From contig CAYTHS010000002.1 in the NCBI GenBank assembly GCA_964437665.1, positions 315 to 64,314 of the forward strand: a stretch of DNA of 64,000 bases. The letters run 5' to 3'. How positions within the stretch are numbered: position 1 is the stretch's first letter; every line of letters starts with the position of its first letter. Below are positions 768 to 51,636 of this stretch, in pieces. Made by a program: the position numbers and the translations under genes. Below the pieces are notes generated by a model. It searched no databases and was not told the origin of the DNA. It saw only the letters and a program-made list of their open reading frames with translations. The stretch is from an uncultured Oscillospiraceae bacterium. GTDB lineage: Bacteria; Bacillota; Clostridia; Christensenellales; CAG-138.

Positions 768-2003
768 ATGCTGCTGATTCGCAATATCGGCCTTTTGCAG
801 ACCCCGCTCGGCAAGGTGAGCCGAAGGGGACGCGCACAGGGGGAAAACCGCAAATACAGAAACGCCTGCGTGCTGCTCGACGGTGGACGCATTGCCGCCG
901 TGACCGAAAACGGCGCGGCGCCGGACTGCCCCGCGGGCACGGAGGAGCTGGACGCGGGCGGACGGTTCGCCACCCCCGGCTGGATCGACGCGCATACCCA
1001 CCTCGTGTTCGGCGGCTGGCGGCAGCATGAAGTGCCGCTTAAACTCAAAGGCGCGAGCTATCTGGAAATCCTGCAGTCCGGCGGCGGTATTCTGGACACC
1101 GTCCAAAAGACGCGCGCGGCAAGCGAGGACGCGCTTTTCGAGCGTGCGTCCGGTTTTCTGGACGAACAGCTTTCGCTTGGTGTAACGGTCACGGAGATCA
1201 AGAGCGGATACGGACTCGACCTGGAGAACGAACTGAAGCAGCTACGCGTGATTGGAAGACTTGGCCAAACGCATCCGGTCGGCGTGGTGCCGACGTTTCT
1301 CGGCGCGCACGCCGTCCCGCCGGAATTTGCGGGCGACGCGAACGGATATGTCGATTTTGTGTGCGGGGAGGTCCTGCCGCGCGTGGCGGCGGAAAAACTG
1401 GCGAAATACTGCGACGTTTTCTGCGAAACCGGCGTGTTTTCGGCGGAGCAGAGCCGCCGGATTCTCGAAACGGCGCGCTCTCTCGGGCTGGGGTTGAAAA
1501 TCCACGCGGACGAGATCGATTCCCTCGGCGGAACGCGGCTTGCGGGCGAGCTTGGCGCGGTTTCCGCCGAACACCTGATCGCGACCACCGACGCGGACAT
1601 CGGCGCGCTGGCAGCGAGCGGCGTGACCGCCTGCCTGCTGCCGCAGACGTCTCTTTATCTGAATAAGCCGTTTGCACGCGCGCGGGAAATGATCGAACGC
1701 GGCGTGGCGGTCGCGGTGGCTTCGGACTTCAACCCCGGATCGTGCCCTTCGCTGAATCTGCAGTTTTGCGCGAACCTTGCGTATTTAAAATACCGCATGA
1801 CGCCGGAGGAAATTCTTACGGCGCTTACGCTCAACGCGGCCTGCGCCATCGGCCTTGGCGGCACGCAGGGCAGTGTCGAGCCGGGTAAGAGCGCCGACCT
1901 TGTGCTCTGGGATGCGGACGGCATGGAATACCTCTGCTACCGCATGGGGAGCAACCTTGCGAAAACGGTAATCAGGGACGGGAAAGTCGCGGTTGCCCGC
2001 TGA
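768..2003 (+). CDS. hutI: imidazolonepropionase
   Basis: 411 aa. Amidohydrolase metal motif DAHTHLVFGG, then SGYGLD and KIHADE blocks. Follows the formiminotransferase gene by 20 nt. Confidence 0.9.
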   Translation: MLLIRNIGLLQTPLGKVSRRGRAQGENRKYRNACVLLDGGRIAAVTENGAAPDCPAGTEELDAGGRFATPGWIDAHTHLVFGGWRQHEVPLKLKGASYLEILQSGGGILDTVQKTRAASEDALFERASGFLDEQLSLGVTVTEIKSGYGLDLENELKQLRVIGRLGQTHPVGVVPTFLGAHAVPPEFAGDANGYVDFVCGEVLPRVAAEKLAKYCDVFCETGVFSAEQSRRILETARSLGLGLKIHADEIDSLGGTRLAGELGAVSAEHLIATTDADIGALAASGVTACLLPQTSLYLNKPFARAREMIERGVAVAVASDFNPGSCPSLNLQFCANLAYLKYRMTPEEILTALTLNAACAIGLGGTQGSVEPGKSADLVLWDADGMEYLCYRMGSNLAKTVIRDGKVAVAR

Positions 2004-2208
2004 CGTTTTCGTTTGGCCCGCAAGAGCGCTTTGCAGGGAATCCGCCCTGCACCGCACCCAAGGGACAAGTACACTGGGAATTCCGGATTGTTTTCAAAAA
2101 AAGGCGTGTTTTTTAGTCGTTTTGGCCCTAAACGGTGGTTTGGAACCGGATCGTCCAGCATCGATTCTTTATCGACAGACAAAGGCGGGAAGCAAATTTG
2201 CTTCCCGT

Positions 2209-2401
2209 GAGACCGTCAAAAAACTTGTTTATTGACGGGATAACCGCTCTTTGCCTCTCGTCCTTCGGACTCCCGGGCGGCAAAGAGCACAGAGAAACCG
2301 CCCGTTCCGGGCGATCCGTTCCGCCGGATGAACCGGCGCAGCCGGAAAAGCGGGTTAAGGGCTGTGGCCCTTAACAATCCCAAGGACTTTTTTGACAGGC
2401 T
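2209..2401 (+). repeat. copy A of a ~160-190-nt structured intergenic repeat with short terminal inverted repeats, flanked by a perfect 25-bp direct repeat (2184-2208 and 2402-2426)
   Basis: Long shared blocks with 16256-16415 and with the reverse complement of 50810-50986. Ends are CCGTCAAAAAA ... TTTTTTGACAGG. The flanking GGCGGGAAGCAAATTTGCTTCCCGT is duplicated exactly. Confidence 0.85.
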
Positions 2402-2453
2402 GGCGGGAAGCAAATTTGCTTCCCGTCTTCGTTATCTCACCGCGTGAAATTTG

Positions 2454-3959
2454 TCAGATCGTTTTAAGCTTGCTCGTGTCCAGCTTGTCGAACGCCATGA
2501 GGAACGCATAGAGTTTTTGCGCAATGACATGCACGCCCCCGACGCTGTTGCTCTCGATGTTGAGCGGCATGAGCGGGTCGTGCAGGGACATCCGCAGCAG
2601 GAACCACCCGTCGCCGTCGTCCGCGCCGAACGAAACGCGCAGGCCTTCGTGGTTTTCTTTGGCCACGCCCCAGCCCTGCTCTTTGGCATATTCGCCGAGG
2701 TCGCGCAGCAGGCCGTTGCCGTATGCCTGACAGTCCGCGCAGGAGAGGTTCATGCGCACCTCGGTGCTTTCTGTGGGTTCGGCGAGCGAGTCGATGAGCG
2801 AAAACAGCGTGCGTCCTTCCTTTTTGAGCTGTGCCATTTTGATGAGCAGCTTGGTGATGAGGAACGCTCCGTCGTCGAGAAAATAGTTTTCCTTGAGCGC
2901 GCCGTGGCCGGATGTCTCGATGGCGAGCTGGCAGTCGCGGCCTTCGTTATTGATGCGGATGGCTTCGTCGATGACGTTTTTATAACCGCGCTTAAAGCGA
3001 TGGTGCACGCCGCCTTTTGCGGCGATGAACGCAGCGAGTCCGCTGGACGTGATGGAGTCCGTCACGATGGTCGTGCCAGGGTGCTCTTCAAGAAGCACGG
3101 CGGAGATCAGCGCAATCAGGCGGTTGCGGTTGATTTCGCGGCCGTCCGCGGCGACCGCGCCCGCGCGGTCCACGTCCGTATCGAAAATGACGCCCATATC
3201 GGCGTGATTTTCCAGCACGCAGGCGGTGACCGCTTTCATGGCCTCTTCGTTTTCCGGGTTCGGCGCGTGGTTCGGGAACATGCCGTCCGGATCCAGAAAC
3301 TGACTGCCGCTCGTGTCCGCGCCGAGCGGAACAAGCACTTTGTCCACAAAGAAGCCGCCCGCGCCGTTGCCCGCGTCCACTATGACGTGGAATCCCTTGA
3401 GTGGATGGTCGTAGTCCGGCGCATTCACGCTCTTTCGGATGCGCTCGACCAGACCGGCGGCATACACGGAAAGGAAATCGACCTGGGCGAGGCTGCCGCG
3501 TTCCATCGCCGGAATATATGCGTTTTCCTGCGCGCGTGCCAGAATGGAGGCAATCTCAACTTTTTCCAGTCCGCCGTCGCGCGTGAAAAACTTGATGCCG
3601 TTGCGGTTCCAGGGCAGGTGGCTTGCGGTGAGCATGATCGCTCCGTCGAACGCGTATCCCGGCGTGACGGTACTCATAAACATGCTCGGCGTGCTGGCCA
3701 TTCCGAAATCGGCGAGGTCCGCGCCCATGGATAAAACGCCTTCTGCAGCGGCGGAAAGCAGCCGTTCCCCGGAAAGCCGGGAATCGCGTCCGATCGAAAG
3801 CCGAAGGTCGCTTTTATTGAACTTCTCCTGCAGAAACAGGACGAACGCTTTTGCGATGTTCGTGACGGCCTCGTCCGTCAGATTCACAGGCTGCCCCTCG
3901 ACGCCTTCCATTGCGACGCCGCGGATATCGCTGCCGTTTTGCAGTTTCCGATATTCCAT
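2454..3959 (-). CDS. alpha-D-phosphohexomutase family (phosphoglucomutase/phosphomannomutase)
   Basis: 501 aa. Active-site serine loop TASHLPWNRNGIKF and Mg-binding loop FDTDVDRAG. Confidence 0.85.
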   Translation of the reverse strand: MEYRKLQNGSDIRGVAMEGVEGQPVNLTDEAVTNIAKAFVLFLQEKFNKSDLRLSIGRDSRLSGERLLSAAAEGVLSMGADLADFGMASTPSMFMSTVTPGYAFDGAIMLTASHLPWNRNGIKFFTRDGGLEKVEIASILARAQENAYIPAMERGSLAQVDFLSVYAAGLVERIRKSVNAPDYDHPLKGFHVIVDAGNGAGGFFVDKVLVPLGADTSGSQFLDPDGMFPNHAPNPENEEAMKAVTACVLENHADMGVIFDTDVDRAGAVAADGREINRNRLIALISAVLLEEHPGTTIVTDSITSSGLAAFIAAKGGVHHRFKRGYKNVIDEAIRINNEGRDCQLAIETSGHGALKENYFLDDGAFLITKLLIKMAQLKKEGRTLFSLIDSLAEPTESTEVRMNLSCADCQAYGNGLLRDLGEYAKEQGWGVAKENHEGLRVSFGADDGDGWFLLRMSLHDPLMPLNIESNSVGGVHVIAQKLYAFLMAFDKLDTSKLKTI

Positions 3960-6266: not shown

Positions 6267-9200
6267 ATGAAGTTTTTAAAATGGAATTTTCTGAAAGTGC
6301 TGGCGGCCTGTGCTGCCGCGCTGCTTCTCATCGGCCCTGCCGCCGCGCTGGCGGAAGGGGACAAGACGGCGGTGACGATCACCGGCGTGAGCGTGGAAAG
6401 CAAAACCTATGATGGCGCGCCCGTTTCGCCAAGCGGCGAGCCCGTTATCAAGGATGCGAGCGAAAACACAGTGACGATTGCTTCCGACGGGCTGGTGTAC
6501 GCCTACGCGAGCACGGACGGCGGGACTTACCTGGACACAACGCCGCCCACGAACGCCGGCGCGTATACGCTTACGATCTCCGTTTCCGGCGGCAACGCGA
6601 CCTATGAAGGGTCGAGCGAGCCGATTCCGTTTACGATCTCCAGGGCGGCGCTGAGCGTCAACCCGGACGGCGGCAAAACGCGCTATGCCGGGCTGAGCGA
6701 TCCCGCGTTTACGTTTTCCAGCGCCGGTCAGATTGCGGAAGAAACGCCCGCGTTCAGCGGCAGCCTGAGCGGCGAAGCGACGGCTTCCTCTGCGGAAGGC
6801 GTATATGACATTACGATCGGCACGCTTGCGCTTTCAGACAGCGGCGCGTTTCTCGCGGACAACTACACGCTTTCGCTTGCGCCCGACGCGGCTTACCGGG
6901 TGGTGAACTATCCGTCCGACGCGGCTGCGACGCTCGCGTCAACGAACCGCGCAACGAATGGAACCTATACCGGCGACGTCACGCTTAATGCACCGGACGG
7001 ATATGAAATCTCGTTCTCGTCCGCGGGCGAATGGGCGGCTTCCGCCACCAAGACGGACTGCGTGACCGGCGACAACGCCATCTATTATTATCTGCGTGTT
7101 TCCGGCGGGAGTTATGTCGGTGCAATCACCGAACGCAAAATGCTTTCGGCGCGATACGACGCGTCGGGCCCTGTCGTTTCGCTGTATTCTCCCACGACGG
7201 ACGCGGCGGTCTCCGGCAATCAGAAGATCATCCTTTCGCTTGACGAATATGCCGCAGCCGGTTCCGGCGCGAGCATAAATGTATCCGCGGGCGGTACGAC
7301 CTATACCGCCGAGGTGACGAACGCATCCGCCCTGGGCGGCGCGTCCGGCGGGCCCTGGTATTTCGTGTTCGATTTAAGCGATTTTTCACCGGCGCTTTCG
7401 CTGACGGCGGGTACGGTATATACGGTTACCGTCCCGGCGGGCACTTTTACCGATGCGACGGGCAACGGCAACGCGGAATTGAGCGCTGCGTTTACCACGT
7501 CCGCTTCCGGTGGGCATGCGGTCGTGTTTACGCAGGCCAACGGCCTTTTGAGCGTGCGGACGGGGACGGACGACGCCGTTGTGAGCGGACAGGCCGTAGC
7601 CGACGGTACGCAGTTGATCTTTGACGCGCCGGCGGAGGGTGGATATTCGCTGAACCGAACTATTTTGGAAGATGGGACGGAAAACGGGAGCGCCGAGTTA
7701 AGCGCCTATACGCTTTCGGGCGATCTGGAGGTGTATTATACCCGCGTGCTGTCGGATTTCAGCGGCACGGCGACAATTTCCGGAACCGTTAAGGCGGGAG
7801 AAACGCTGACGGGCGGGGTTGACGGAGCGAACCAGAGCGATTCGTCCGGGTGGACGTTTACCTGGGTGCGGCGTGACGGCGGCGTTGATACGCCGCTTGC
7901 CTCGGGCGGCAGCGGCACAAGCTATACGCTCACCGCGGCGGACGTTGGCAAGACGATCCGCCTGGCGGTAACGGACTCGGTCTGCGTTAACGGAGTTCTT
8001 TATAAAGAAACGGTGACCGTTGCAAAAGCGGACTACCAGGGCAGCGTGGTGGCGGCGCCGGCGATTGTGTCCCTTGGCGAAACCGACGTTACGCTTGCCT
8101 CTACCGACGGCTATGAGTATTCCCTTGGCGGCACAGCCTGGCAGGACAGTCCGTCGTTTTCCGGACTTGTAAGCGGCCAGAGATACGACTTTTATCAGCG
8201 CGTTAAAGCAACGGACACGGTGAATGCGTCTCCCGCAAGTGAAAAGACGAGTATCGGCACCGTTTCCGCACTGTCGGGCACGGTTTCCATCAGCGGAACG
8301 GCGCAGTCCGGCAGCCTTCTGACCGGAGCGATCGCGGATAGCAACAACACCGGCACGCTCACATATACCTGGAAGCGCGGAACCGCCACCGTCGGCACGG
8401 GCGCGACGTATACGCCCGCCGCCGCGGATATTGGCCAGACCCTCACGCTCGAGGTGACCAGCAGCGTGCAGACGGGGACGCGTTCTGCAACGAGCGCGGC
8501 GGTGCTCAAAGCGGTTTGTTCGCAGCCTGCACCCGCTGCGCCGGCGCTGGCAAGCGCAACCGCGACGAGCATTACGCTTACGGCGACGCCGGGGTATCAG
8601 TACTCGCTCGGCGGCACGGCCTGGCAGGATACGACGACGTTCCATAACCTTTCGATCGGCACGAGCTATACGTTTTATCAGCGCGTGAAGGAGACGGATA
8701 CCGAACTGAGTTCGGCGAGCAGCCCCGGCGCGACGTTTTCCACGCTGCCTGCGCTCAGCGGCGTGATCATGATTTCCGGCGAAGCACGTTACGGCATGAC
8801 GATTGTAGCGAGCCTTACCGATACCAACAACACCGGCACGCTGAGCTATACCTGGAAGCGCGGCACGCTTACGGTCGGCACCGGCGCGGCATATGCCGTC
8901 GGTGCGGTCGATATAGGCAATCAGCTTTCTCTTGAAGTGACGAGTTCCGAGCAGGGCGGCAGCATCACCCGTTCGTTCGGCACGGTGCAAAAAGCGTACT
9001 ATTTCGGAAACACGCCGGGCGCGCCAACGCGCGCCAGCCGCACCACGAGCAAAATTGTTCTCAAGAGCGTCGACGACTGCGAGTATTCCAGAAACGGCAC
9101 GACCTGGCAGGACAGCACGACGTTCTCCGGTTTGAGGTCCGGCACGACCTATACGTTTTACCAGCGCTATAAAGCGACCACCACAATGGAAGCATCCCCG

Positions 9201-9968
9201 GCAAGCGATTCTCTGAGAACGGCAACGCTCTCTTCAAGCAGTTCGGACGACGATTCTTCGACCTCTGCTACGCCGACGCCCGCGTCGGATTCCTCCGGCT
9301 CCGATACGGCGCTCTACAGCTATACGCTCACAAGCGACAACACGCGGATCCTCTACAGCGTCATGAAAAACCTTGCCGCTGGCAACAAAACGAAGGACGT
9401 GACCATCAAGCAAAGCAACGTGGAAATTACGTTCCTCAAGGGGACGATGACCGACAGTTACACCAAGCTTTGGTACGATTTCGGCACGACCATCAATAAT
9501 TCCATCGCTGAACAGACGGCAAAAAGCATTGCCGGGGACGCGTATGTGGCGACTATCCATTTTAATTACGAAGGCGCGCTACCCGGGACGGCGAGCATTC
9601 GATTCTGGCTCGGTGCGGCGAACGCGGGAAAAACGCTGTATTACTATAAGCTTGAAGACGACGAAACGCTCACGTTCATGCAGACCGCTGTGGCCGACAG
9701 CACCGGCTGGGTGACGGTCAAGCAGACAAGCTGTTCGGACTACGTGTTCCTTGACCGGGACATTGCGGCCGCTTCGGCAACCCCCGCGCCGTCCTCGACT
9801 GCAAGCGCCGGCGTTTCCCCGACGCCTACGTCGCTGATCGCGGCTGACGATACGCCGTTTTCCGGTCTCACGGCGGAGGGCTGGTTCATCGCGGTGCTCG
9901 TATTGCTGGCAATTGCGCTGATTGTCGGCGGCATCTGGCTCTATACGAAGAATCGGGACGAATATTAA
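6267..9968 (+). CDS. large cell-surface protein: signal peptide, N-terminal MBG-type domains, three internal repeat modules, Ser/Thr/Asp-rich linker, C-terminal TM anchor
   Basis: 1233 aa. N-terminal hydrophobic signal LLLIGPAAALA. KTYDG...NAGAYTLTIS...FTISRAAL pattern of MBG domains. Three repeats of GGTAWQDS..F.GL..G..Y.FYQR.K.TDT followed by a SG....SG block. C-terminal WFIAVLVLLAIALIVGGIWLY. Confidence 0.85.
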   Translation: MKFLKWNFLKVLAACAAALLLIGPAAALAEGDKTAVTITGVSVESKTYDGAPVSPSGEPVIKDASENTVTIASDGLVYAYASTDGGTYLDTTPPTNAGAYTLTISVSGGNATYEGSSEPIPFTISRAALSVNPDGGKTRYAGLSDPAFTFSSAGQIAEETPAFSGSLSGEATASSAEGVYDITIGTLALSDSGAFLADNYTLSLAPDAAYRVVNYPSDAAATLASTNRATNGTYTGDVTLNAPDGYEISFSSAGEWAASATKTDCVTGDNAIYYYLRVSGGSYVGAITERKMLSARYDASGPVVSLYSPTTDAAVSGNQKIILSLDEYAAAGSGASINVSAGGTTYTAEVTNASALGGASGGPWYFVFDLSDFSPALSLTAGTVYTVTVPAGTFTDATGNGNAELSAAFTTSASGGHAVVFTQANGLLSVRTGTDDAVVSGQAVADGTQLIFDAPAEGGYSLNRTILEDGTENGSAELSAYTLSGDLEVYYTRVLSDFSGTATISGTVKAGETLTGGVDGANQSDSSGWTFTWVRRDGGVDTPLASGGSGTSYTLTAADVGKTIRLAVTDSVCVNGVLYKETVTVAKADYQGSVVAAPAIVSLGETDVTLASTDGYEYSLGGTAWQDSPSFSGLVSGQRYDFYQRVKATDTVNASPASEKTSIGTVSALSGTVSISGTAQSGSLLTGAIADSNNTGTLTYTWKRGTATVGTGATYTPAAADIGQTLTLEVTSSVQTGTRSATSAAVLKAVCSQPAPAAPALASATATSITLTATPGYQYSLGGTAWQDTTTFHNLSIGTSYTFYQRVKETDTELSSASSPGATFSTLPALSGVIMISGEARYGMTIVASLTDTNNTGTLSYTWKRGTLTVGTGAAYAVGAVDIGNQLSLEVTSSEQGGSITRSFGTVQKAYYFGNTPGAPTRASRTTSKIVLKSVDDCEYSRNGTTWQDSTTFSGLRSGTTYTFYQRYKATTTMEASPASDSLRTATLSSSSSDDDSSTSATPTPASDSSGSDTALYSYTLTSDNTRILYSVMKNLAAGNKTKDVTIKQSNVEITFLKGTMTDSYTKLWYDFGTTINNSIAEQTAKSIAGDAYVATIHFNYEGALPGTASIRFWLGAANAGKTLYYYKLEDDETLTFMQTAVADSTGWVTVKQTSCSDYVFLDRDIAAASATPAPSSTASAGVSPTPTSLIAADDTPFSGLTAEGWFIAVLVLLAIALIVGGIWLYTKNRDEY

Positions 9969-13700: not shown

Positions 13701-15923
13701 ATGATATGTAAGGAATGCGGCGCTTTCAACGCTGAAAACCTGACAAACTGCAAAGCCTGCGGAGCGAAGCTCAATGGTGAAGACGTGGGTGCAGCTGCGG
13801 AAACGCCCGTGGAGCATCAGGACGACGGGAAGCCTTCGCGCGAGTTCGTGAAGGCGCCGGCATGGCCGACGCGCGCTTTTTCCGGCGCGCCGGAAAACCA
13901 GCCGATTCCTCCTTCCGCACCCGAAGCGGCCAGTGCGCCGTCCGGTTCGTTCCGTCCTACGATTCCGCCGCGCGCGGCCGCGGCTCTTCCGGTAGGCGAA
14001 CCGTGCGAATCCTGCGGGAAACCTACGGTTGCAGACGCGCAGTTCTGCCCCTATTGCGGGTATAATCTGCATGCTCCGGCAGACGCGCAGCGCGAACAGT
14101 TCAGCGCGGGCGCGGCGCATGCCGCCGCCGCACAGAGCGCGCTGGATGATTTTGACGATGATTATGAAGATGAAGAATTCGACGACGAGGAATTCGGCCT
14201 GAAGAAATCGAAACGGCGCGGATCGGGCAAAATCGCACGGCGCGACGAGGAATTCGACGACGATTATCCCGCGGAATACGACGAGGAATTCGAAGACGAA
14301 GATTATGACGATATGCCCAAAAAACGCAGCAAAGGCACGACGATCCTATTTTGGAGCCTTATTGTTCTGCTGCTTGCGCTGATTGCCGTATTTGGCATGT
14401 ATATCGCTAAAAAGAACTTCGACGGAGATATCGGCAAGATGTTTGCCTCGATCGGAAGCGTATTCAATACGAACGGAAGCCAGGACGTGGATGCATCCGA
14501 CCCGACCACGATAGACGCTTCCGGCCAGAGCAATATGTATACCGCGTCGATCAGTGAATATACGGACCCGTCTACAAACGAAGTATACTTCGATATCGAT
14601 ATATTTGCGCCCACGGGCAGTACGGTACGTATCATTACGGACGCGACCCTGAAGGACAATACCGCGACGGTACCGTCCAACGACCATGTAATCCTCCGCA
14701 TTGCGCGGGACGTGTTCATGCCGAATGCGCCCGTCGAGAGTGAAGTGCTGACGATTACTCCGAACATACAGGTCATTTCGACGGACGGCCAGACAACGCA
14801 GCTTACCGTTCCGGATATAACGGTAACGGTGCCGGTGCTGAGCATGACGGTTACGGAACCCGCAGGGGATACGGTCAGCGCGACGTATGACAGCAGCCCG
14901 ATTGCAATCATTGGACAGGTTAACGATTACGACGGGGAAATCGCCGTGTTTGTTAACGATCAGCAGGTCTATGTGGACAGCACGGGTATGTTTACATCAA
15001 GCTATACGCCTGCGGCGGCGAGCACGACCGCAGCACAGGCGCCCGCGGCCGACGAAACGGCTACGACCGGCGAGACGGCAACGACCGACGAGACGGCAAC
15101 GACCGACGAGACGGCAACGACCGACGAGACGGCGACGACCGACGAGACGGCAACGACCGACGAGACTGCGACGACCGACGAGACTGCTACGACCGACGAG
15201 ACTGCGACGACCGACGAGACTGCGACGACCGGCGAAACGACGACGACCGGCGCGCAGACGATCGTTATCGAAGCGCGGAAGAATAACTGCGTGACTGCGC
15301 GTAAGGTAATCACCGTCGAACCGTATGTGATGCAGAACCTCTCGTTTATGGTTACGAATGAAACGGACACGCTTTCCTCCGACGCGGGAAGCGTTACGGT
15401 GACCGGTACGGCTACGCCGGGCACTAAAATTACGGCGACGTGCCCCTCGACCGACGTAACGTTCGGCGAGGCGACGGTCAGCGATACCGGAACGTTCTCC
15501 ATGGCGGTTTCCATCGCGAAAGTCGGCGCTTACGATATTACGCTGACCGGACAGCTCGAAGGCTACTATGACGGAACCACGATTGCGACCGTGGAACGCC
15601 CGCCGTCGGACTCCAGCAGCGTATTTAAGAAGGCGGCCGCCGACCTGACCAAGAGTTATGAAAAGATCGTCGACGGCAGCGTTACAGACGGCGACTTCGT
15701 TTGCACCGGCAGGATTACGGAAATCATTGCTTCCGAGCCGTACACGATCTTCCGCGTGGAGCTCAGCGACGGCAAAGAGGTCATCTGCGTCAACCGCAGC
15801 ACCAAATCGACGATCAACTCGTCCGACCTCAAGGAAAAGAAACAGCTTGCCGGTACGCTCAAGGGGCTGTATACCGACGGAACGACGCCTTACCTCTGGA
15901 CTTGGTTTATCTGGAATAAATAA
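13701..15923 (+). CDS. zinc-ribbon membrane protein with acidic cytoplasmic linker, one TM helix and a large extracytoplasmic domain
   Basis: 740 aa. Two CxxC...CxxC zinc ribbons (CKECG..CKACG; CESCG..CPYCG). D/E-rich tract. TM helix ILFWSLIVLLLALIAVFGMYI. DETATT repeat tract. RBS GGAGG. Confidence 0.8.
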   Translation: MICKECGAFNAENLTNCKACGAKLNGEDVGAAAETPVEHQDDGKPSREFVKAPAWPTRAFSGAPENQPIPPSAPEAASAPSGSFRPTIPPRAAAALPVGEPCESCGKPTVADAQFCPYCGYNLHAPADAQREQFSAGAAHAAAAQSALDDFDDDYEDEEFDDEEFGLKKSKRRGSGKIARRDEEFDDDYPAEYDEEFEDEDYDDMPKKRSKGTTILFWSLIVLLLALIAVFGMYIAKKNFDGDIGKMFASIGSVFNTNGSQDVDASDPTTIDASGQSNMYTASISEYTDPSTNEVYFDIDIFAPTGSTVRIITDATLKDNTATVPSNDHVILRIARDVFMPNAPVESEVLTITPNIQVISTDGQTTQLTVPDITVTVPVLSMTVTEPAGDTVSATYDSSPIAIIGQVNDYDGEIAVFVNDQQVYVDSTGMFTSSYTPAAASTTAAQAPAADETATTGETATTDETATTDETATTDETATTDETATTDETATTDETATTDETATTDETATTGETTTTGAQTIVIEARKNNCVTARKVITVEPYVMQNLSFMVTNETDTLSSDAGSVTVTGTATPGTKITATCPSTDVTFGEATVSDTGTFSMAVSIAKVGAYDITLTGQLEGYYDGTTIATVERPPSDSSSVFKKAAADLTKSYEKIVDGSVTDGDFVCTGRITEIIASEPYTIFRVELSDGKEVICVNRSTKSTINSSDLKEKKQLAGTLKGLYTDGTTPYLWTWFIWNK
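15051..15248 (+). repeat. in-frame tandem repeat, 11 x 18 bp (GACGAGACGGCAACGACC, encoding DETATT)
   Basis: Read directly. Units differ only at a few synonymous or near-synonymous positions. Confidence 0.95.
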
Positions 15924-15927
15924 CGGC

Positions 15928-16233
15928 GTGAAAATCTGGGCGAAAGTGATCAAGAATCATAAGATTACCGAAGAAGCCGTGCGGGAGTTTGCTCCCGCAC
16001 GGCCTTTGGACGCGGAGGGCTGGCGGCCGGTCGTCGTGACGCTTTGCAAACCGTTCGACCTTTCGTGTCCGGTCATCCTGGATAAACATGTAACCGAACT
16101 GAAACGATTTTCGCGAACGGTATTTTCACCGGCGGATTTTATGGAAGGCATATCGTTCGACCGGTTCGAACTGGAGATTTTTCCGGAAAAGAAGAAAGAA
16201 ACGCGTCTGGAATACATCTACGGCGACAACTGA
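15928..16233 (+). CDS. hypothetical protein (101 aa, GTG start)
   Basis: In-frame GTG 5 nt after the upstream stop. Protein-like composition (VKIWAKVIKNHKITEEAVREF...). No family recognised and the RBS is weak. Confidence 0.4.
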   Translation: MKIWAKVIKNHKITEEAVREFAPARPLDAEGWRPVVVTLCKPFDLSCPVILDKHVTELKRFSRTVFSPADFMEGISFDRFELEIFPEKKKETRLEYIYGDN

Positions 16234-16255: not shown

Positions 16256-16415
16256 TTGGCTTTGACGTAATAACCGTTTTTTGACTCTTGCCCTTCGGAC
16301 TCCCAGGCGGCAACGCGCACAAAAAACCTCCCGAAACGGGCGATGGTGCTGTGCCGGATAAACGGATTAAGGGCTGCGGCTCTTAACAACCCCGAAGATT
16401 TATTTAGCAGGCTGA
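16256..16415 (+). repeat. copy B of the structured intergenic repeat (left end diverged or truncated)
   Basis: Aligns with 2230-2401 over TTGACG.AATAACCG...CCTTCGGACTCCC.GGCGGCAA...GGGCGATGG...GCCGGATAAACGGATTAAGGGCTGCGGCTCTTAAC...CAGGCTGA. Confidence 0.8.
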
Positions 16416-16440
16416 GCGGCTCCGTCGGGGCCGCTTTTTC
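16416..16440 (+). terminator. rho-independent terminator abutting repeat copy B
   Basis: GCGGCTCC-GTC-GGGGCCGC plus TTTTT. Confidence 0.75.
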
Positions 16441-23343: not shown

Positions 23344-24909
23344 ATGGAACATAACCAAACCATCGTTCAGATGAAGGGTATTACGAAGGTGTATCCCAAT
23401 GGCATTGCCGCAAATCAGGGGGTGGATTTTTTCGTGCGCCGTGGTGAAATCCACGCGCTGATGGGAGAAAACGGCGCGGGGAAATCGACCTTGATGAAGA
23501 TGCTCTTCGGCATGGAACAGCCGACCGAAGGCGAGATCATCGTAAACGATGAGAAGGTCCTGCTGACCTCGCCGACGGCTGCGATTGCGCACGGCATCGG
23601 CATGGTGCATCAGCACTTTATGCTGGTGCCAAGCCTCACGGTCGCGGAGAACATCGTGCTCGGGATGGTGCCGAAAAAATCCGGCGTGCTGATCGACTAT
23701 AAGAAAGCGCTGGAGATCACGAAAGAATATTCCGAACGGTTTAATCTGGCGGTCAATCCGGACGCGAAGGTGATGGACATCCCCGTTGGGATGAAGCAAA
23801 AGGTAGAGATCCTTAAAGCGTTGATCCGCGGCGCAAAAATTCTCATCCTTGACGAACCGACGGCGGTTCTGACTACGCAGGAAACGGCGGAACTCTTCAA
23901 GGAACTGATTCATCTCAAAGAACAGGGATACACAATCATCTTTATTTCTCACAAACTCAAAGAAATCAAACAGATTACAGACCGGCTTACGATCATGCGC
24001 GGCGGTAAAACCATGGGCGTTTTTGAGACGGCTTCCATTACCGAGCAGGAGATTTCGCGCCTGATGGTCGGGCGCGACGTTGTGCTGGACGTGGAAAAAG
24101 ACGCGCCGCATCCTACGGACGTGGTGCTTCGCGTAGAAGGACTGCGTTACACCAACGAATGGAACAAGCGTATGCTTGACGGCGTCTCGTTTGCGGTGCG
24201 CAAGGGCGAAATCCTGGGCGTAGCCGGCGTTGAAGGCAACGGACAGCGCGAGCTGGTGGACATGCTTTTCGGCCTCAACACGCCGGACGACGGGGAGGCG
24301 AGCGTTGACGGCGAGGATATCATCGGAAAACCGCAGTATCGCATCCGCAGGCTCGGCGTTTCGCTGGTGCCGGAGGACCGCATGACCTACGGCATCGCCG
24401 AGAGCGCTTCCATCGAGGAAAACGTCATCTCGGATCGGTTTACGGAAAAACGCTTCAACCATGGTCCGCTGTTTGACATGAAAGCGATCCATGCGGAAAG
24501 CGACCGGCTGATCGAGGATTACACGGTGCTTTGCAAATCCCGCCGGCAGAAGGTTAAGATGCTTTCCGGCGGCAATATCCAAAAGGTGGTTGTGGCGCGC
24601 GAATTTTCGAGCGATCCAACGCTGATCATCGCCGACCAGCCGACGCGAGGCATCGACGTGGGCGCGACGGAGTTTATCCGTAAGAAGCTGGTCGATCTGT
24701 CCCGCGCGGGCGCGGCCGTACTGCTGGTCTCCGCCGACCTCAACGAGGTAATGGAGCTTTCCGACAGTCTGATCGTGCTTTACGGCGGAAAGATCGCCGC
24801 CTATTTCGAGGACACGTCCGATCTGGACGACGTCGTGATGGGTGAATATATGCTCGGGCTGAAGCGCCAGAGCGACGAGGAGATCGGGAGGGTATGTCAT
24901 GAAGGGTAA
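23344..24909 (+). CDS. ABC transporter ATP-binding protein (duplicated ABC domains)
   Basis: 521 aa. Walker A GENGAGKST, LSGG signature, and a second degenerate ABC domain. Confidence 0.9.
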   Translation: MEHNQTIVQMKGITKVYPNGIAANQGVDFFVRRGEIHALMGENGAGKSTLMKMLFGMEQPTEGEIIVNDEKVLLTSPTAAIAHGIGMVHQHFMLVPSLTVAENIVLGMVPKKSGVLIDYKKALEITKEYSERFNLAVNPDAKVMDIPVGMKQKVEILKALIRGAKILILDEPTAVLTTQETAELFKELIHLKEQGYTIIFISHKLKEIKQITDRLTIMRGGKTMGVFETASITEQEISRLMVGRDVVLDVEKDAPHPTDVVLRVEGLRYTNEWNKRMLDGVSFAVRKGEILGVAGVEGNGQRELVDMLFGLNTPDDGEASVDGEDIIGKPQYRIRRLGVSLVPEDRMTYGIAESASIEENVISDRFTEKRFNHGPLFDMKAIHAESDRLIEDYTVLCKSRRQKVKMLSGGNIQKVVVAREFSSDPTLIIADQPTRGIDVGATEFIRKKLVDLSRAGAAVLLVSADLNEVMELSDSLIVLYGGKIAAYFEDTSDLDDVVMGEYMLGLKRQSDEEIGRVCHEG

Positions 24910-26978: not shown

Positions 26979-27928
26979 TGCAGAGGATACCGGTGATTCT
27001 GGACGGCGACCCGGGCCATGACGACGCGATTGCATGGGTGCTGGCAAATGCCAGCCCTATGCTGGAAATCAAGGCGGTGACCTCGGTCTGCGGAAACCAG
27101 ACAATCGAAAAAACAACCTATAACGCGGGGCGGATTATGACGCTGATCGGGCTCGACGTCCCGCTTGCCGCGGGTCGTGTCAAACCGCTTGTGGCCGACC
27201 CGATCATCGCGCCTACGGTACACGGGCAGTCCGGCCTGGATGGTCCGGCACTGCCGGAACCGAAGCAGGAACCGGCCGATATCGACGCATGCGCGCTGAT
27301 GGCGCGAGTGATCGAGGAAAGCGGCGAGCCCGTCGTACTCATCCCGACCGGGCCGCTGACCAATGTTGCGGCGCTTGTGTTGCTGTATCCGCATCTGAAA
27401 AGCAAGATACGGCATATCTACATGATGGGCGGCGGAATCGCCTACGGCAACTGGACGTGCGCGGCGGAATTTAATATACTGGTAGACCCGGAAGCCGCGG
27501 ATATTGTTTTTTGCAGCGGACTGCCGATCACCATGGCCGGACTGGACGTGACGGAGAAGGCGCTGGTGTTTCCGGAGGATTTCGAACGGATCCGCGCGCT
27601 GGGAAACCCCGTGGCAAAGGTCGTCGCCGAGTGGCTGGACTTCTTCTACGGGTTTCACCGCAGTATCGGCTATCCCGGCGCGCCTGTGCACGACGCGGTC
27701 GCCGTCGCGGCACTGATCAGGCCGGAGATTATGACGTTCCAGGATATGTATGTGGCGATAGAAACAACAGGCGACTATTGCCGCGGCGCGACCGTCGGAG
27801 ACCCGCTGGGTCTGTTGAAAAAACCTGCAAACGTCCGGTGCATCATGGATATCGACCGAAAAAGATTTGTTGATTTGCTTGCGGAGGCTGCGGAAGCATA
27901 TTCGGGAAGGGGGCTGGAGCATGCGTAA
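26975..27928 (+). CDS. nucleoside hydrolase (IUNH family)
   Basis: N-terminal DGDPGHDDAIA Ca/ribose-binding motif. 317 aa. Confidence 0.9.
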   Translation: MMQRIPVILDGDPGHDDAIAWVLANASPMLEIKAVTSVCGNQTIEKTTYNAGRIMTLIGLDVPLAAGRVKPLVADPIIAPTVHGQSGLDGPALPEPKQEPADIDACALMARVIEESGEPVVLIPTGPLTNVAALVLLYPHLKSKIRHIYMMGGGIAYGNWTCAAEFNILVDPEAADIVFCSGLPITMAGLDVTEKALVFPEDFERIRALGNPVAKVVAEWLDFFYGFHRSIGYPGAPVHDAVAVAALIRPEIMTFQDMYVAIETTGDYCRGATVGDPLGLLKKPANVRCIMDIDRKRFVDLLAEAAEAYSGRGLEHA

Positions 27929-28856
27929 ACTGCCGATGCTGCTGGACTGCGATACAGGCGTGGACGACGCGATTGCAATCCTGCTTTCCAGGTACCTAAC
28001 AACTCTGGAACTCGTTGCCGTGACGAGCGTTGCGGGTAATGTGGAAATCGAAAAAACCACCAGAAACGCGCTGAGCGTACTCGAACTGGCCGGCATGGAG
28101 GATATCCCCGTTTACCGCGGCGCTGCGAAGCCGATGATGTGTGAGCCTGTCACGGCATATTACGTGCACGGACAGAACGGGCTGGGCGGCCTCGCGGTCC
28201 CGAAACCCAAACGTGAAGCGGAGCGCCTGCCCGCATGGGATGCGATCTATGAAACGGCCAAGCGTTATGCCGGCGAACTGACAATTGTTGCGATCGGCCC
28301 GCTGACAAATCTCGGGCTTGCGCTTGCAAAATATAAGGAACTGCCGAAGCTGATCAAGCGCATCGTGCTTATGGGCGGTGCGGCCGTCGGCGGAAACGTA
28401 ACGCCGAGCGCGGAGTTTAACATTTATGTCGATCCGGAGGCGGCGGACATGGTGTTTACCTGCGGCGCGGACATTGCCATGTGCGGACTGGATATGACGG
28501 TGCCGGCTTATCTTACGCCGGAGGAGCTTGACGAACTGGGGGCTTTTGGTTCGCCGCAGGCGAAATTCGCGAGGGATGTGGTGCAGGGCGTGCTGGCGTT
28601 TTCCAGGGGGTACCGGCTGCCGGGCATGTGTATGCACGACCCCGCGACGCTGCTGTATGCCGACGACGATTCCTGCTTTAAAGCCAAACGTGCGGGCGTG
28701 CGCGTGGAGACAAAGGGGAGTCTGACGCGCGGAAAAACCGTGACCGATCTTTACAGCGACAAGCAGATGGAAAAAAACGCCTCCATCGTAACGCAGATCG
28801 ACAGGGAAGCGTTCAAACGAAGGCTGTTTGAGTTGATGGCACAATACGGAAAATAG
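27921..28856 (+). CDS. nucleoside hydrolase (IUNH family), second paralogue
   Basis: ATG at 27921. LLDCDTGVDDAIAI motif. 311 aa. Confidence 0.9.
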   Translation: MRKLPMLLDCDTGVDDAIAILLSRYLTTLELVAVTSVAGNVEIEKTTRNALSVLELAGMEDIPVYRGAAKPMMCEPVTAYYVHGQNGLGGLAVPKPKREAERLPAWDAIYETAKRYAGELTIVAIGPLTNLGLALAKYKELPKLIKRIVLMGGAAVGGNVTPSAEFNIYVDPEAADMVFTCGADIAMCGLDMTVPAYLTPEELDELGAFGSPQAKFARDVVQGVLAFSRGYRLPGMCMHDPATLLYADDDSCFKAKRAGVRVETKGSLTRGKTVTDLYSDKQMEKNASIVTQIDREAFKRRLFELMAQYGK

Positions 28857-28861
28857 AAACG

Positions 28862-28898
28862 ACAACGGCTTTTGCAGTAAGCAAAAGCCGTTGTTTCG
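28862..28898. terminator. bidirectional terminator
   Basis: ACAACGGCTTTTGC-AGTA-GCAAAAGCCGTTGT between convergent genes. Confidence 0.75.
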
Positions 28899-28921: not shown

Positions 28922-29659
28922 TTAGCCGGAAATCTGTGCGAATGCTTCCAATGCCGTGAGGATCTCATGTTTCTCGCCCTCCATGGCGGCCGTTTCCCCG
29001 TCCGCGTAGGAGCCGATTGCATCCAGCGTGTCCTGCCGGTAAGCGACGACATTGTTGAGGATGCTCATGCAGCGGATTTTCCGCAGGCGTCCGATCACAT
29101 AAAGCGCGGCGGTCTCCATATCGCACCCCAGCACGCCCTGCTTCGACCAGTACGCGTCGATTTCATCCTCACGGTCGGTATAGAAGCTGTCGTGACTGCG
29201 CGCAATTCCTGTGTGGAAGGCGAAGTCAAGCTTTATCGCGGCCTGCTGACAGGCAAAGAGCAGTGTTTCGTCTGCAACTGCTGGATAGACGGGGTCAAGA
29301 TACGTTTTGCTTGTTCCGTCGTCGCGTACCGCGCCGGAGACGAGAATCAGATCGCCTAGGCCAACCTCCGGCTGCAGCGCGCCGCAGCTGCCGATGCGGA
29401 TCATGTTCGTTACACCGAGATTATGCAGTTCCTCCACGGCAATTCCGGCGGACGCGCCGCCGATGCCGGTGGAGACGGCAAGCATGCGCGTCCCCTTATA
29501 ATCGCCGGCAAGGCTTCTGAACTCGCGATTGAACGCGAGGTCCTGTACGCCGGAGAGAAACGGCCGGATGCGCTCAAGCCGCGCAGGGTCGCCTGGCAAA
29601 AGTGCGCAGCATGCGCCGTGGCTGCTGTCCAAACGGATATGTGGCTGTAATTGCGGCAT
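28922..29659 (-). CDS. udp: uridine phosphorylase-like nucleoside phosphorylase (PNP/UDP family)
   Basis: 245 aa. LLPGDPARLERI ... STGIGGASAGIAVEEL ... IRIGSCGAL aligns with my memory of E. coli Udp. Confidence 0.8.
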   Translation of the reverse strand: MPQLQPHIRLDSSHGACCALLPGDPARLERIRPFLSGVQDLAFNREFRSLAGDYKGTRMLAVSTGIGGASAGIAVEELHNLGVTNMIRIGSCGALQPEVGLGDLILVSGAVRDDGTSKTYLDPVYPAVADETLLFACQQAAIKLDFAFHTGIARSHDSFYTDREDEIDAYWSKQGVLGCDMETAALYVIGRLRKIRCMSILNNVVAYRQDTLDAIGSYADGETAAMEGEKHEILTALEAFAQISG

Positions 29660-50764: not shown

Positions 50765-50809
50765 TCAAAGCAAACCGGCAAGCGAAGTCCCCGCAGTACT
50801 GCGGGGACT

Positions 50810-50986
50810 TCAGTTTGCCAAAAAGCCTTCGGAATTGTTAAGAGCCGCAGCCCGTAATCCGTTTTTCCGGCACAACACCATCGCCCTTTTCAGGTGGGTT
50901 GTTTGTGCGCTTTGGCGCCCGGGAACGCGAAGGACGAGAGGCAAAGAGCGGTTATACCATCAAATAATCGGTTTTTTGACGGGCAC
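50810..50986 (-). repeat. copy C of the structured intergenic repeat (inverted orientation), flanked by a 24-bp direct repeat (50786-50809 and 50987-51010, 22/24 identical)
   Basis: The reverse complement aligns with 2209-2401, including both terminal inverted repeats. Flanks are AGTCCCCGCAGTACTGCGGGGACT and AGTCCCCGCAGTATTGCGGGGGCT. Confidence 0.85.
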
Positions 50987-51016
50987 AGTCCCCGCAGTAT
51001 TGCGGGGGCTTTTCTG
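50987..51016 (+). terminator. rho-independent terminator (distal copy of the duplicated hydA terminator)
   Basis: AGTCCCCGCA-GTAT-TGCGGGGGCT plus TTTCTG. Confidence 0.75.
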
Positions 51017-51325
51017 TGGAATCCTGCCGAGAAAAATCCTGCAGGACTGCGTGGAGTGCCAAATAGTGGAAGGAGAACAAAGACATACGCACGAGAGAGC
51101 GCCAAAACAGGAAACGTGTTTTGACGGGAACGGCTTTGACAAATGCAGGCTTCTTTTAGGTGCAATGCTTGCATTCTCGTGAAAAATCAATCTCCGCAGG
51201 TTTTTACGTACCGGCCGGAAAACACAATATGCGTTGACTGCGGCGCGCAGCGCTTGTTCGCGTTTCATTTACTTCTGTGGTATAATCAAGCGCAAGTATG
51301 ATATAAACGGGAGAGGAAATCAAAT

Positions 51326-51598: not shown

Positions 51599-51636
51599 GC
51601 GGCTTTTATCAGGACATTGCAATAGGCGTAAAAGAC

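Follow-up and report, generated by a model that had tools for sequence, protein, structure and literature searches.

The Locus and Three Copies of the Element

Between an imidazolonepropionase-like (HutI-like) gene and a leftward PGM/PMM gene, the 64-kb stretch of DNA analysed here (hereafter the window) carries a non-coding repeat, copy A, bounded on both sides by a palindromic terminator hairpin (Table 1). An nhmmer search of the window with a profile of the repeat family detects exactly three copies (A, B, and C). An earlier note on this DNA had described 25-bp repeats flanking copy A, short inverted repeats at its ends (CCGTCAAAAAA...TTTTTTGACAGG), and related copies elsewhere in the window. 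The flanks are indeed identical at every position, and a repeat finder returns the same arrangement; the inverted repeats are present; and both of the other copies are real, although their limits have been revised to those of Table 1. The G at 2402 can be assigned either to the CTG end of copy A or to the duplication. Copy A is 98% identical to the element at L012:5972–6164, and all metagenome contigs that encode the identical HutI-like protein carry copy A.

The left hairpin of copy A, with a T-rich tail on the minus strand, scores as a terminator for the leftward PGM/PMM gene (site 2207–2186), and the right hairpin, with its own T-rich tail, scores as a plus-strand terminator for the imidazolonepropionase-like gene (site 2402–2427); on each strand, the T-tailed terminator is the distal hairpin copy. 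Copy B lacks both the left inverted repeat and the left hairpin; it starts 28 nt past the stop codon of the ORF at 15658–16233 and is followed by a terminator hairpin (16415–16440). Copy C lies between an Fe-hydrogenase gene (49022–50764, +) and a YhbY-like gene (51326–51598, +). The hairpin duplication reported around copy A stands, but that of copy C, in which two positions differ, had been missed.

Table 1. Features of the element copies and of an unoccupied target in the window.
Feature	Position	Strand	Evidence or remark
Left copy of duplicated target hairpin, copy A (GGCGGGAAGCAAATTTGCTTCCCGT)	2184..2208	.	25/25 identical to 2402-2426
Element copy A, full length, 193 nt	2209..2401	+	nhmmer E = 9e-65
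Left terminal inverted repeat, GAGACCGTCAAAAAAC	2209..2224	+	Conserved sequence, no covariation with right repeat
Internal second copy of right-end motif (TTTATTGACGG)	2228..2238	+	Helix 1, 96.7% paired
Core hairpin domain 1	2246..2288	+	Outer helix 2246-2255/2279-2288, inner helices 2257-2263/2267-2277
Core hairpin 2 (CGCCCG-TTC-CGGGCG)	2299..2313	+	Helix 4, 96.2% paired
Core hairpin domain 3	2316..2353	+	Outer helix 2316-2320/2349-2353, inner 2321-2327/2333-2339
Core hairpin 4 (GTTAAGGGC-TGTG-GCCCTTAAC)	2354..2375	+	Helix 7, 95.5% paired
Right terminal inverted repeat, TTTTTTGACAGGCT(G)	2388..2401	+	Repeat finder and conservation among copies
Right copy of duplicated target hairpin, copy A	2402..2426	.	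25/25 identical to 2184-2208
Element copy B, short subfamily	16261..16414	+	nhmmer 16261-16413, profile positions 23-194, E = 4e-35
Unoccupied target, single 29-bp terminator palindrome (AACGGCTTTTGCAGTAAGCAAAAGCCGTT)	28864..28892	.	Orthologous to filled L067:7266-7459
Duplicated target hairpin of copy C, right-end side (AGTCCCCGCAGTACTGCGGGGACTT)	50786..50810	.	23/25 identical to 50987-51011
Element copy C, short subfamily, full ends	50811..50986	-	nhmmer 50813-50984, E = 4e-40
Duplicated target hairpin of copy C, left-end side (AGTCCCCGCAGTATTGCGGGGGCTT), then T-run	50987..51011	.	23/25 identical to 50786-50810

Anatomy and Occurrence of the Element Family

The element is 175–195 bp long across copies and ends in imperfect terminal inverted repeats of ~15 bp (5'-NAGNCNGTCAAAAAA...TTTTTTGACNGNCTN-3'), of which GAGRCCGTCAAAAAAC and GTTTTTTGACAGRCTG are found in nearly all of 77 copies. 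In these copies, the end repeats are complementary in ~90% of cells, and they are conserved in sequence with no covariation, the pattern that would be expected of protein-binding sites. Pairing of the two element ends with each other and a closing GGGAU/AUCCC stem were both considered as structural elements and rejected: each is complementary, yet neither covaries. The end motif occurs a third time inside the element, where the left repeat and the internal copy of the right-end motif make up a 26-bp palindrome (CCGTCAAAAAAC-N3-GTTTTTTGACGG). A short subfamily, which includes copies B and C, is without the inner hairpin of core domain 3. There is no conserved reading frame among the copies, because they differ by indels of 1–2 nt and of ~20 nt. 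As in MITEs, the element is small and has no coding capacity, and it is dispersed in many copies per genome, including the three in the window.

Full-length copies, 75–98% identical, are carried by six or more named MAG genomes, and the carriers are several MAGs assigned to Christensenellaceae, Oscillospiraceae, and Eubacteriales. The MAG AMR_MDS_3085 has at least 41 distinct copies (276 kb sampled), and Christensenella sp. CA_33 has at least 22; the complete Christensenellaceae chromosomes OY762290.1 and OY762278.1 are carriers too. The element is common in Christensenellaceae-like gut and digester bacteria. Many copies sit at contig ends. Core-less copies that consist of just the two ends also exist at hairpin-flanked sites (e.g., L068:3323–3350). 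Plasmid and phage collections searched for the element gave no match; one IMG/VR contig carries an ordinary copy. The earlier note could not place the element in any RNA or IS family, and no Rfam family, group II introns, HEARO/omega RNA, and other IS-associated RNAs included, matches in the whole window at gathering thresholds. Permissive Rfam scans of copies A and C and of one divergent copy gave low-scoring matches only, all far short of the gathering scores. Matches located on the flanking terminator hairpins are chance matches of the hairpin type, and the few over the element body scored equally low.

Duplication of Terminator Hairpins at the Insertion Site

In a survey of the flanks of 78 element copies, 60 are flanked by a duplication of a hairpin specific to their own locus (50 direct, six too palindromic for the orientation to be told, and four with a flipped loop). 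The flanking hairpins fold at about −5 to −28 kcal/mol. The duplication is ~16–35 bp long, its length tracks that of the hairpin, and the duplicated unit is the whole stem-loop, usually together with 1–4 flanking A/T pairs. Target hairpins differ in sequence and length among loci; they are palindromic intrinsic terminators of any sequence. The other 18 copies have no flanking duplication, which is tentatively attributed to recombination between copies or to truncation. Because this arrangement is seen again and again, at dozens of loci and in several genomes, chance is excluded, and the proposal made from the sequence alone, that copy A is an insertion and its 25-bp repeat a target duplication holding a whole terminator hairpin, is borne out.

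A before-and-after comparison is provided by an unoccupied target in the window, a single terminator palindrome between convergent genes for a nucleoside hydrolase (27867–28856, +) and a PNP_UDP_1 protein (28922–29659, −). At the orthologous site in a related MAG (L067), with flanks 82–83% identical to the window, the 29-bp hairpin is doubled in the order hairpin, element, hairpin. A single-hairpin empty site of the kind that had been sought thus exists, and the target-site duplication, a further feature of MITEs, is confirmed against it: one hairpin becomes two around the element. Exact-match scans of metagenome contigs for an empty allele of copy A or copy C found none.

Both insertion orientations occur, and the same terminators have been struck repeatedly in different lineages. 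Tandem elements with one shared hairpin are present at L077; an orthologous terminator has been occupied independently, in opposite orientation, at L008 and by copy C, and another at L011 and L040, where the hairpins differ. As to gene context, 39 of the 78 copies lie between convergent genes, and convergent pairs make up only 8 of the 47 adjacent gene pairs in the window; tandem contexts comprise 17 sense and 12 antisense insertions. The element favors terminators between convergent genes. Gene orientation was called by codon usage, a version based on the longest open frame being too noisy in GC-rich DNA.

A Covarying Core of Four Hairpin Domains

The core of the element (~150 nt) folds into four hairpin domains. 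The structure was written by hand and tested by pair counts over 77 copies; RNAalifold on a MAFFT alignment returned a weak, partial consensus only. Across the core helices, 93.9% of cells are paired and 24 pairs change on both sides. The cells changed on both sides number 154, compared with 44.8 ± 4.8 in shuffles, and slid registers are merely 33–52% paired. In domain 1, seven pairs of helix 2 and two of helix 3 are changed on both sides, and both helices are present in MFE folds; in domain 3, the same holds for five pairs of helix 6. The two internal hairpins named in the earlier note (core hairpins 2 and 4) are real and show compensatory changes across the 77 copies: the closing pair of hairpin 2 goes from GC to CG in 11 copies, and three pairs of hairpin 4 are changed on both sides. 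The distal CCTTCGG/CCGAAGG pairing, which had also been suggested, did not hold up, as it is paired in 74.6% of cells versus 75.7% in shuffled columns.

Search for a Transposase

No transposase with matching ends was found in ~936 kb (the window and the loci), and because this covers ~10–20% of any one genome, the missing transposase is weak evidence. A tblastn search of the ~936 kb with E. coli IS30 InsI, a distant query against partial coverage, gave nothing below E = 1, and the Christensenellales loci contain no multi-copy coding repeats. Pfam searches of the genes between paired copies identified no transposase or integrase (matches were ordinary or lacking), nor did Pfam searches of the 10 long ORFs whose codon use is the most atypical. 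A scan for core-less end palindromes returned mostly the same elements on the other strand, together with a few solo palindromes. Several candidates were rejected: a TnpB element of Fervidicola and Thermovorax is unrelated and matched the search pattern by chance; pairs of end motifs 0.6–4 kb apart, considered as a possible autonomous element, are chance matches; and neither the gene beside a truncated copy in L083 nor the genes between a solo palindrome and an element copy in L068 have transposase-like features.

Comparison With Known Mobile Elements

The length of the duplication around copy A, which the earlier note had singled out as unusual, is rare but has precedents, because IS1630 and IS1272/TnSha1 provide parallels for a long, hairpin-bearing target-site duplication and for hairpin targeting. 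For IS1630 (IS30 family) of Mycoplasma fermentans, the account cited here describes duplication of targeted inverted repeats, with lengths of 16, 23, 25, and 26 bp (PMC3317919; Calcutt et al., 1999, J Bacteriol 181:7597). The outcome is the same, an element between two hairpins, with an inverted repeat of variable length and sequence duplicated. IS1630 differs in being an autonomous IS of ~1.2–1.4 kb that encodes an IS30-type transposase, has inverted repeats of 27 bp, and comes from a low-GC mollicute, whereas the element described here, from Christensenellales, is non-coding, with a length of 193 bp and repeats of ~15 bp. IS1272/TnSha1 (IS1182 family) of staphylococci targets DNA secondary structures irrespective of primary sequence, mostly hairpins that RNA-seq confirmed as terminators, and inserts both ways round and repeatedly at one hairpin (PMC4923244). 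A cruciform-attack model has come from this work, in which, by one pathway, the ends are joined at the 5' feet and the whole stem-loop is duplicated (PMC5678879). Terminator hairpins of any sequence are likewise targeted here, in both orientations; the terminal repeats of IS1272/TnSha1 are 16 bp long, and in one variant the left end is duplicated. However, IS1272 deletes or replaces the hairpin with no target duplication, whereas the present element duplicates it, and IS1272 is 1.9 kb long with a transposase of 548 aa, whereas the present element is gene-less.

Bacterial MITEs (Correia, RUP, BOX, ERIC, and Nezha) are likewise multi-copy, small, and non-coding. They end in terminal inverted repeats, generate target duplications, and are intergenic, often downstream of genes, with stable predicted RNA or DNA structures. 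They differ in having fixed duplications of 2–10 bp and usually one long hairpin through the ends, in place of a duplicated whole terminator of variable length and a branched, covarying core. No MITE with this kind of terminator targeting is mentioned in a 2024 review of the prokaryotic ones (PMC10969869). REP/BIME sequences, including CGTC-tagged REPs, are palindromes of extragenic DNA, with enrichment both downstream of genes and between convergent ones, and CGTC also occurs in the end motif of the element; REPs are 20–40-bp units with an unpaired GTAG or CGTC tag, 8–9-bp stems, and no target duplication (PMC3733652). Identity with a CGTC-tagged REP was rejected: the CGTC here is paired inside an 11-bp stem and belongs to an A/T-rich 26-bp palindrome that is merely the left end of a 193-bp unit with target duplications. 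A SPRITE was ruled out on anatomy. Elements derived from IS200/IS605 have no terminal inverted repeats or target duplication and insert 3' of a fixed tetra- or pentanucleotide; a palindrome-associated element of this origin is excluded by the terminal inverted repeats, the long duplications, and targets without a fixed sequence. The habit of duplicating a hairpin on insertion has previously been reported only for a few full-size insertion sequences; here it is found in a gene-less element.

Proposed Mechanism and Alternative Explanations

The repeat is probably a MITE-like non-autonomous DNA transposon that uses terminator palindromes as its targets and leaves the entire stem-loop duplicated. 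A transposase acting in trans would bind the conserved ends, and the ends would be joined at the two feet of the target palindrome, which is probably extruded as a cruciform during joining, so that the two attack points are brought close; gap repair would then copy the stem-loop on each side. Once the element is in place, the proximal hairpin copy of each gene would be left without most of its T-tract, the far copy having the full T-tail; transcription from either flank probably continues through the element as far as that distal copy. One point against a passive MITE is the conserved, covarying, branched core, because a passive MITE needs none.

That core might have been selected as RNA, the repeat being chiefly a structured non-coding RNA module, carried by a transposon and transcribed in the 3' UTRs of its neighbors (e.g., as a 3'-end stabilizer, protein sponge, or regulator). 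Consistent with this are the strong compensatory covariation of the core helices and their variable loops, a predicted folding far more stable than that of shuffles (z = −9.4), and the identity of copy A (98%) to a copy in a genome with flanking genes that are ~82–83% identical; read-through of the element is also plausible, because the proximal hairpin loses its T-tract. We nevertheless consider an RNA module improbable. There is no strand preference (G-U vs. A-C mismatches are 155 vs. 139 overall and 131 vs. 107 in shared states), the folds are equally good on both strands, and the tandem contexts are without orientation bias (17 vs. 12). A sigma-70 promoter was sought in copy A and none was found; it is because of the missing strand bias and promoter that an RNA role is unproven. 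Furthermore, no Rfam match was obtained, and a whole hairpin is dispensable in the short subfamily. Singleton mutations amount to 0.47 per column in stems and 0.56 in unpaired columns; with stems hit at nearly the rate of unpaired columns, the decay of individual copies seems to be neutral. Equal pairing on both strands and the frequency of singletons in stems also fit a DNA-level process, in which the compensatory changes are unselected and arise by intrastrand template switching (quasi-palindrome correction) in DNA hairpins at replication, the element being otherwise an ordinary MITE. The covarying helices are all local stem-loops (span ≤45 nt), and the four flanking hairpin copies with flipped loops indicate that hairpin-templated rearrangement happens at these loci. 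Against template switching, the core length and full architecture are kept across genomes at 75–98% identity, shared variation is lower in stems than in unpaired columns (7.1 vs. 11.8 minority cells per column), and in the outer helix of domain 1, which spans a 23-nt insert, 10 pairs are retained and several double changes are independent; we regard this explanation as unlikely. We take the covarying core to reflect either a constraint on the element lineage as it propagates or mutation templated by the hairpins, rather than a host-selected RNA gene.

Two other routes of insertion bear on the flanking repeats. Long palindromic repeats are also found as dif or att cores and as CRISPR repeats, and the latter are duplicated at spacer integration; the long, palindromic repeats here could accordingly be attL/attR-type sites left by site-specific recombination (a tyrosine, serine, or Cas1-like integrase) and not a transposition duplication, and the searched sequence yielded no DDE transposase. 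This is very unlikely: the flanking hairpins vary in sequence and length, and because they are different at every locus, no core site of an element-borne recombinase could match every one; the terminal inverted repeats of the element are conserved; and no integrase gene was seen near the sampled copies. A SINE-like retroelement, whose structured RNA would be reverse-transcribed at nicks beside hairpins, with staggered nicks giving rise to the duplications, would account for the structured core, the A- and T-runs at the ends, and target duplications of variable length. It is hardly credible given that the ends are true inverted repeats with the motif present a third time internally, that both orientations occur with no strand signal, that core-less copies comprising the ends only exist at hairpin-flanked sites (L068, above), and that no reverse transcriptase was seen.

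Returning to a non-autonomous transposon that duplicates terminators, its core might have a function in transposition. In this conjecture, to which we give little weight, the transposition system reads DNA shape rather than sequence: the enzyme would recognize extruded terminator cruciforms and duplicate them, and the four-hairpin core would be a cis-acting cofactor for the enzyme, as folded ssDNA or as RNA from either strand. Such a cofactor would explain why a gene-less parasite keeps a covarying 150-nt structure across genera.

Significance

The element family offers a large natural data set on structure-directed transposition, with more than 80 insertions in several genomes, including an orthologous pair of empty and filled sites, terminators struck repeatedly, and old insertions with hairpin copies that have since diverged; only a few insertions of IS1630 and IS1272 had hitherto documented this behavior. 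Should mobility depend on the covarying core, the element would be an unusual gene-less transposon that carries a structural cofactor. An enzyme able to attack a cruciform at both feet, if found, would be a useful tool for the study of DNA secondary structure in vivo. For gut and digester microbiology, the element affects the annotation of Christensenellaceae-type genomes, and it breaks assemblies, many copies being found where contigs end. Insertion turns one terminator into two and probably extends the 3' UTR of each neighboring gene; where the neighbors are convergent, the extended 3' UTRs would yield complementary transcript ends.

Element Copies in the Window

Copy A represents a miniature transposable element of a new family, which targets and duplicates terminator hairpins; the observation on copy A made in the earlier note is confirmed and extended. 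A family-profile search of the window returned exactly three copies (Table). The arrangement that the earlier note described for copy A, a 193-nt element between identical 25-bp hairpins, was borne out, and a repeat finder reported a composite 45-nt inverted repeat (I4) around it. That account overlooked the bracketing of copy C by a duplicated hairpin (23/25 identical; repeat finder I17), as well as the loss from copy B of the left inverted repeat, with no left-side hairpin. The genes beside the three copies are ordinary: a convergent amidohydrolase (imidazolonepropionase-like, 768–2003, plus strand) and PGM/PMM phosphohexomutase (2454–3959, minus strand) for copy A, and an Fe-hydrogenase gene before copy C, with copy B placed 28 nt past the stop codon of ORF 15658–16233.

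Table. Element copies in the window and their associated hairpins
Feature	Position	Strand	Description
Copy A, left hairpin	2184–2208		25-mer GGCGGGAAGCAAATTTGCTTCCCGT
Copy A	2209–2401	+	family-profile match; begins GAGACCGTCAAAAAAC, ends TTTTTTGACAGGCT(G)
Copy A, right hairpin	2402–2426		25-mer GGCGGGAAGCAAATTTGCTTCCCGT
Composite inverted repeat	2179–2223 / 2388–2432		I4
Copy B	16261–16413	+	family-profile match, profile positions 23–194 only
Copy C, hairpin	50786–50810		AGTCCCCGCAGTACTGCGGGGACTT
Copy C	50813–50984	-	family-profile match
Copy C, hairpin	50987–51011		AGTCCCCGCAGTATTGCGGGGGCTT

The window also holds other repeats. At least 11 tandem 18-nt units (D1/D2; GACGACCGACGAGACGGC-like) at 15001–15288 lie within a long ORF for a zinc-ribbon protein (13701–15923) and would form a six-residue repeat tract if translated; three diverged 483-bp direct repeats (D3–D5; 8089–9184, 64–73% identical) within a 1233-aa ORF (6267–9968) look like repeated protein domains; and a 97-nt inverted match of 72% (I3; 23452–23548 vs. 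58735–58831), between coding regions on opposite strands, is probably a paralogous gene pair.

Distribution in Related Genomes

A degenerate pattern taken from the core's 3′ portion gave 13 matches in one species-representative genome, the MAG “Eubacteriales bacterium AMR_MDS_3085”. A pattern for the left-end palindrome gave at least 95 matches; by BLAST of copy A, nearly all of the places matched carry the element in full, with alignment over its entire length at 75–98% identity. By label, the host MAGs are Christensenella sp. CA_33, UBA7703, Christensenellaceae (complete chromosomes OY762290 and OY762278), Eubacteriales 5C_59, uncultured Oscillospiraceae, and a Bacillota bacterium. At a minimum, AMR_MDS_3085 has 41 distinct copies (in 276 kb sampled) and Christensenella sp. 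CA_33 has 22; several copies are placed at contig ends, as would be expected of a repeat that breaks assemblies. A TnpB/Cas12f-like (OrfB_IS605) multi-copy element of thermophilic Firmicutes (Fervidicola, Thermovorax; loci L018, L026, L029, L041, L074, L099, L109, L127, and L129; also L032 and L111) was a chance match to the degenerate palindrome pattern and is unrelated.

Orthologous flanks of the window genome and AMR_MDS_3085 are 82–83% identical, and the two genomes represent different species. Despite this divergence of the flanks, copy A is 97.9% identical to one AMR_MDS_3085 copy (L012:5972–6164), a similarity that suggests a subfamily either far younger than the species split or exchanged between species. 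All three further contigs with an identical HutI-like protein contain copy A. One of these, the metagenome contig L014 (2537–2760), matches the window in its HutI-like gene, in the left hairpin, and in copy A, but its right flank has another hairpin, GGCCGCCGGGAAACCGGCGGCC, and another gene (AlaDh_PNT_C). Either two copies of the element recombined in a related strain, or the contig is a chimera assembled across the repeat.

Duplication of Target Hairpins

In almost all of 80 copies with inspected flanks, a GC-rich stem-loop directly abuts the left end and is repeated directly beyond the right end, with sequence and length that differ at each locus. By local alignment over 78 copies, the flanks form a direct repeat in 50, match better as reverse complement (a flipped loop) in 4, have a loop too palindromic for an orientation call in 6, and show no duplication in 18. 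Duplicated segments have about 12–35 identical positions (typically 22–30), with folding energies of about −5 to −28 kcal/mol.

An empty/filled pair documents the event directly. The flanks of an element in another MAG (L067:7266–7459) align to window positions 29263–28864 and 28892–28495, with a 29 bp overlap; the empty site in the window reads GAAAC, AACGGCTTTTGCTTACTGCAAAAGCCGTT, GTCG, with one hairpin (28864–28892), and the filled site reads GAAAC, AACGGCTTTTGCTTGCTGCAAAAGCCGTT, the element (GAGACC...GGATG), AACGGCTTTTGCTTGCTGCAAAAGCCGTT, TCCG. The single hairpin at the empty site has become two hairpins around the element, and the comparison sets the element limits as 5′-GAG...CTG-3′ and the duplication as exactly the palindrome. 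Relatives with the two hairpin copies and no insert, which the earlier note had named as a sign that the duplication was unrelated, were never encountered; exact-match searches of metagenome contigs returned no unoccupied allele for the site of copy A or for that of copy C. In the four flipped-loop cases (L023:3012–3205, L027:2656–2848, L039:7384–7579, and L088:5955–6146), the stems are identical between both hairpin copies and the loop is reverse-complemented in one (e.g., CCTCTG vs. CAGAGG), together with part of the stem in L039, which implies small within-hairpin inversions after insertion.

Many targets have an A-run upstream and a T-run downstream of the stem, of which the duplication usually includes 1–4 A/T pairs, and the targets look like intrinsic terminators. 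With flanking genes assigned by a codon-usage-based caller, 39 of 78 copies lie between convergent genes, 17 are tandem sense, 12 tandem antisense, and 4 apparently divergent. Convergent pairs make up 8 of 47 adjacent gene pairs in the window; thus, bidirectional terminators are favored, and the counts give no orientation rule for the element. The same terminators have been occupied more than once. At a site orthologous to that of copy C (L008:1–523; window 50786–51605), the element is inverted relative to copy C and the hairpin is different, and two further orthologous sites (L011 and L040) are both filled, each duplicating its own hairpin; these comparisons indicate independent insertions at one terminator in two species. 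In a tandem pair at L077:6855–7264 (element, hairpin, element, hairpin, with one hairpin in common), the hairpin duplicated by the first element served as the target of the second.

Element Ends and Core

The element ends are conserved in sequence, with left and right about 90% complementary, and lack covariation, the pattern of a candidate protein-binding site. A third occurrence of the right-end motif lies just within the left end, which makes the first 30 nt a palindrome, CCGTCAAAAAAC-N3-GTTTTTTGACGG. Solo palindromes of 26–31 bp, comprising both ends without the core, occur at L068:3290–3375, L092:5870–5930, L116:4429, L128:5844, and L070:3245; that of L068 (3323–3350) sits between two hairpin copies, and that of L092 is at a site orthologous to a full element in L036. 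Each is probably what a deletion from the internal to the terminal right-end motif left behind. Hairpins flanked by short end-like motifs (GTCAAAAG...CTTTTGAC, or TTTTGAC-hairpin-GCCGTCAAAA) at L116:4500–4540 and L128:5875–5925 may be left over from neighbouring elements or from decayed ones.

The 150-nt core comprises four hairpin domains, and its branched fold covaries and is unexpectedly conserved. Across 77 distinct copies and the 55 pairs of a hand-written structure, 93.9% of cells are standard pairs and 24 pairs are changed on both sides; cells changed on both sides number 154, vs. 44.8 ± 4.8 in column shuffles (the observed value was reached in 0 of 500), and slid registers are just 33–52% paired. 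Minimum-free-energy folding of copy A gives the same hairpins. The loops are freely variable, and in a short subfamily (copies B and C, and L002, L043, and L050) domain 3 has no inner hairpin.

Evidence on the functional strand is balanced: paired columns hold 155 G-U cells and 139 A-C cells (equivalent to G-U on the opposite strand), or 131 and 107 for states common to at least three copies, and folding stability is equal on both strands (z = −9.4 and −9.3). Copy A yielded no sigma-70-type promoter. A terminator scan found a T-rich-tailed terminator in its right hairpin copy on the plus strand and in its left copy on the minus strand, such that each flanking gene meets a hairpin without T-tract first and the complete terminator beyond the element; at convergent sites, we infer passive transcription from both sides. 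Singleton substitutions per column are similar in stems (0.47) and unpaired positions (0.56), and stems carry less shared variation than unpaired columns (7.1 vs. 11.8 minority cells per column); thus, individual copies seem to decay neutrally, with constraint at the level of propagating lineages. Two explanations are left: mobility depends on the fold, or the pairing of the arms is maintained by a mutational process, for instance hairpin-templated correction. Loop flips in four flanking hairpins show that hairpin-templated events occur at these loci.

Insertion Mechanism and Known Systems

The element inserts at palindromes of any sequence and duplicates the whole palindrome, with conserved inverted-repeat ends, use of both orientations, and many copies. 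A stagger of 16–35 bp that tracks hairpin length is hard to square with one transpososome on B-form DNA, and is natural for a target palindrome extruded as a cruciform, because extrusion would bring its two feet next to each other; the element ends may be joined at both feet by a trans-acting transposase. This putative pathway is the stem-loop duplication pathway drawn by Wan et al. in their model for IS1272 (PMC5678879). No transposase or integrase was found in the fraction of each genome searched: tblastn with IS30 InsI returned nothing in about 936 kb, the relevant loci hold no multi-copy coding repeats, genes between paired copies are ordinary and include neither enzyme, and the ten most atypical long ORFs lack transposase domains.

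REP and CGTC-REP elements, IS200/IS605-derived elements, and group II introns and all Rfam families were rejected on anatomy. IS1272 and TnSha1 (IS1182 family) target terminator hairpins whatever their sequence, in either orientation and with repeated hits on a single hairpin, but the hairpin is deleted and no target duplication arises (PMC4923244), whereas the element duplicates it. The autonomous IS1630 has the same outcome as the element, although the latter is a gene-less miniature in a different phylum-level setting; it is a MITE whose insertion is structure-directed in the manner of IS1630. No MITE with such terminator-hairpin targeting and duplication is described in a 2024 review of the prokaryotic ones (PMC10969869), and our literature search found no paper linking Christensenellaceae with MITEs. 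A rare, hairpin-duplicating mode of insertion is now richly documented.
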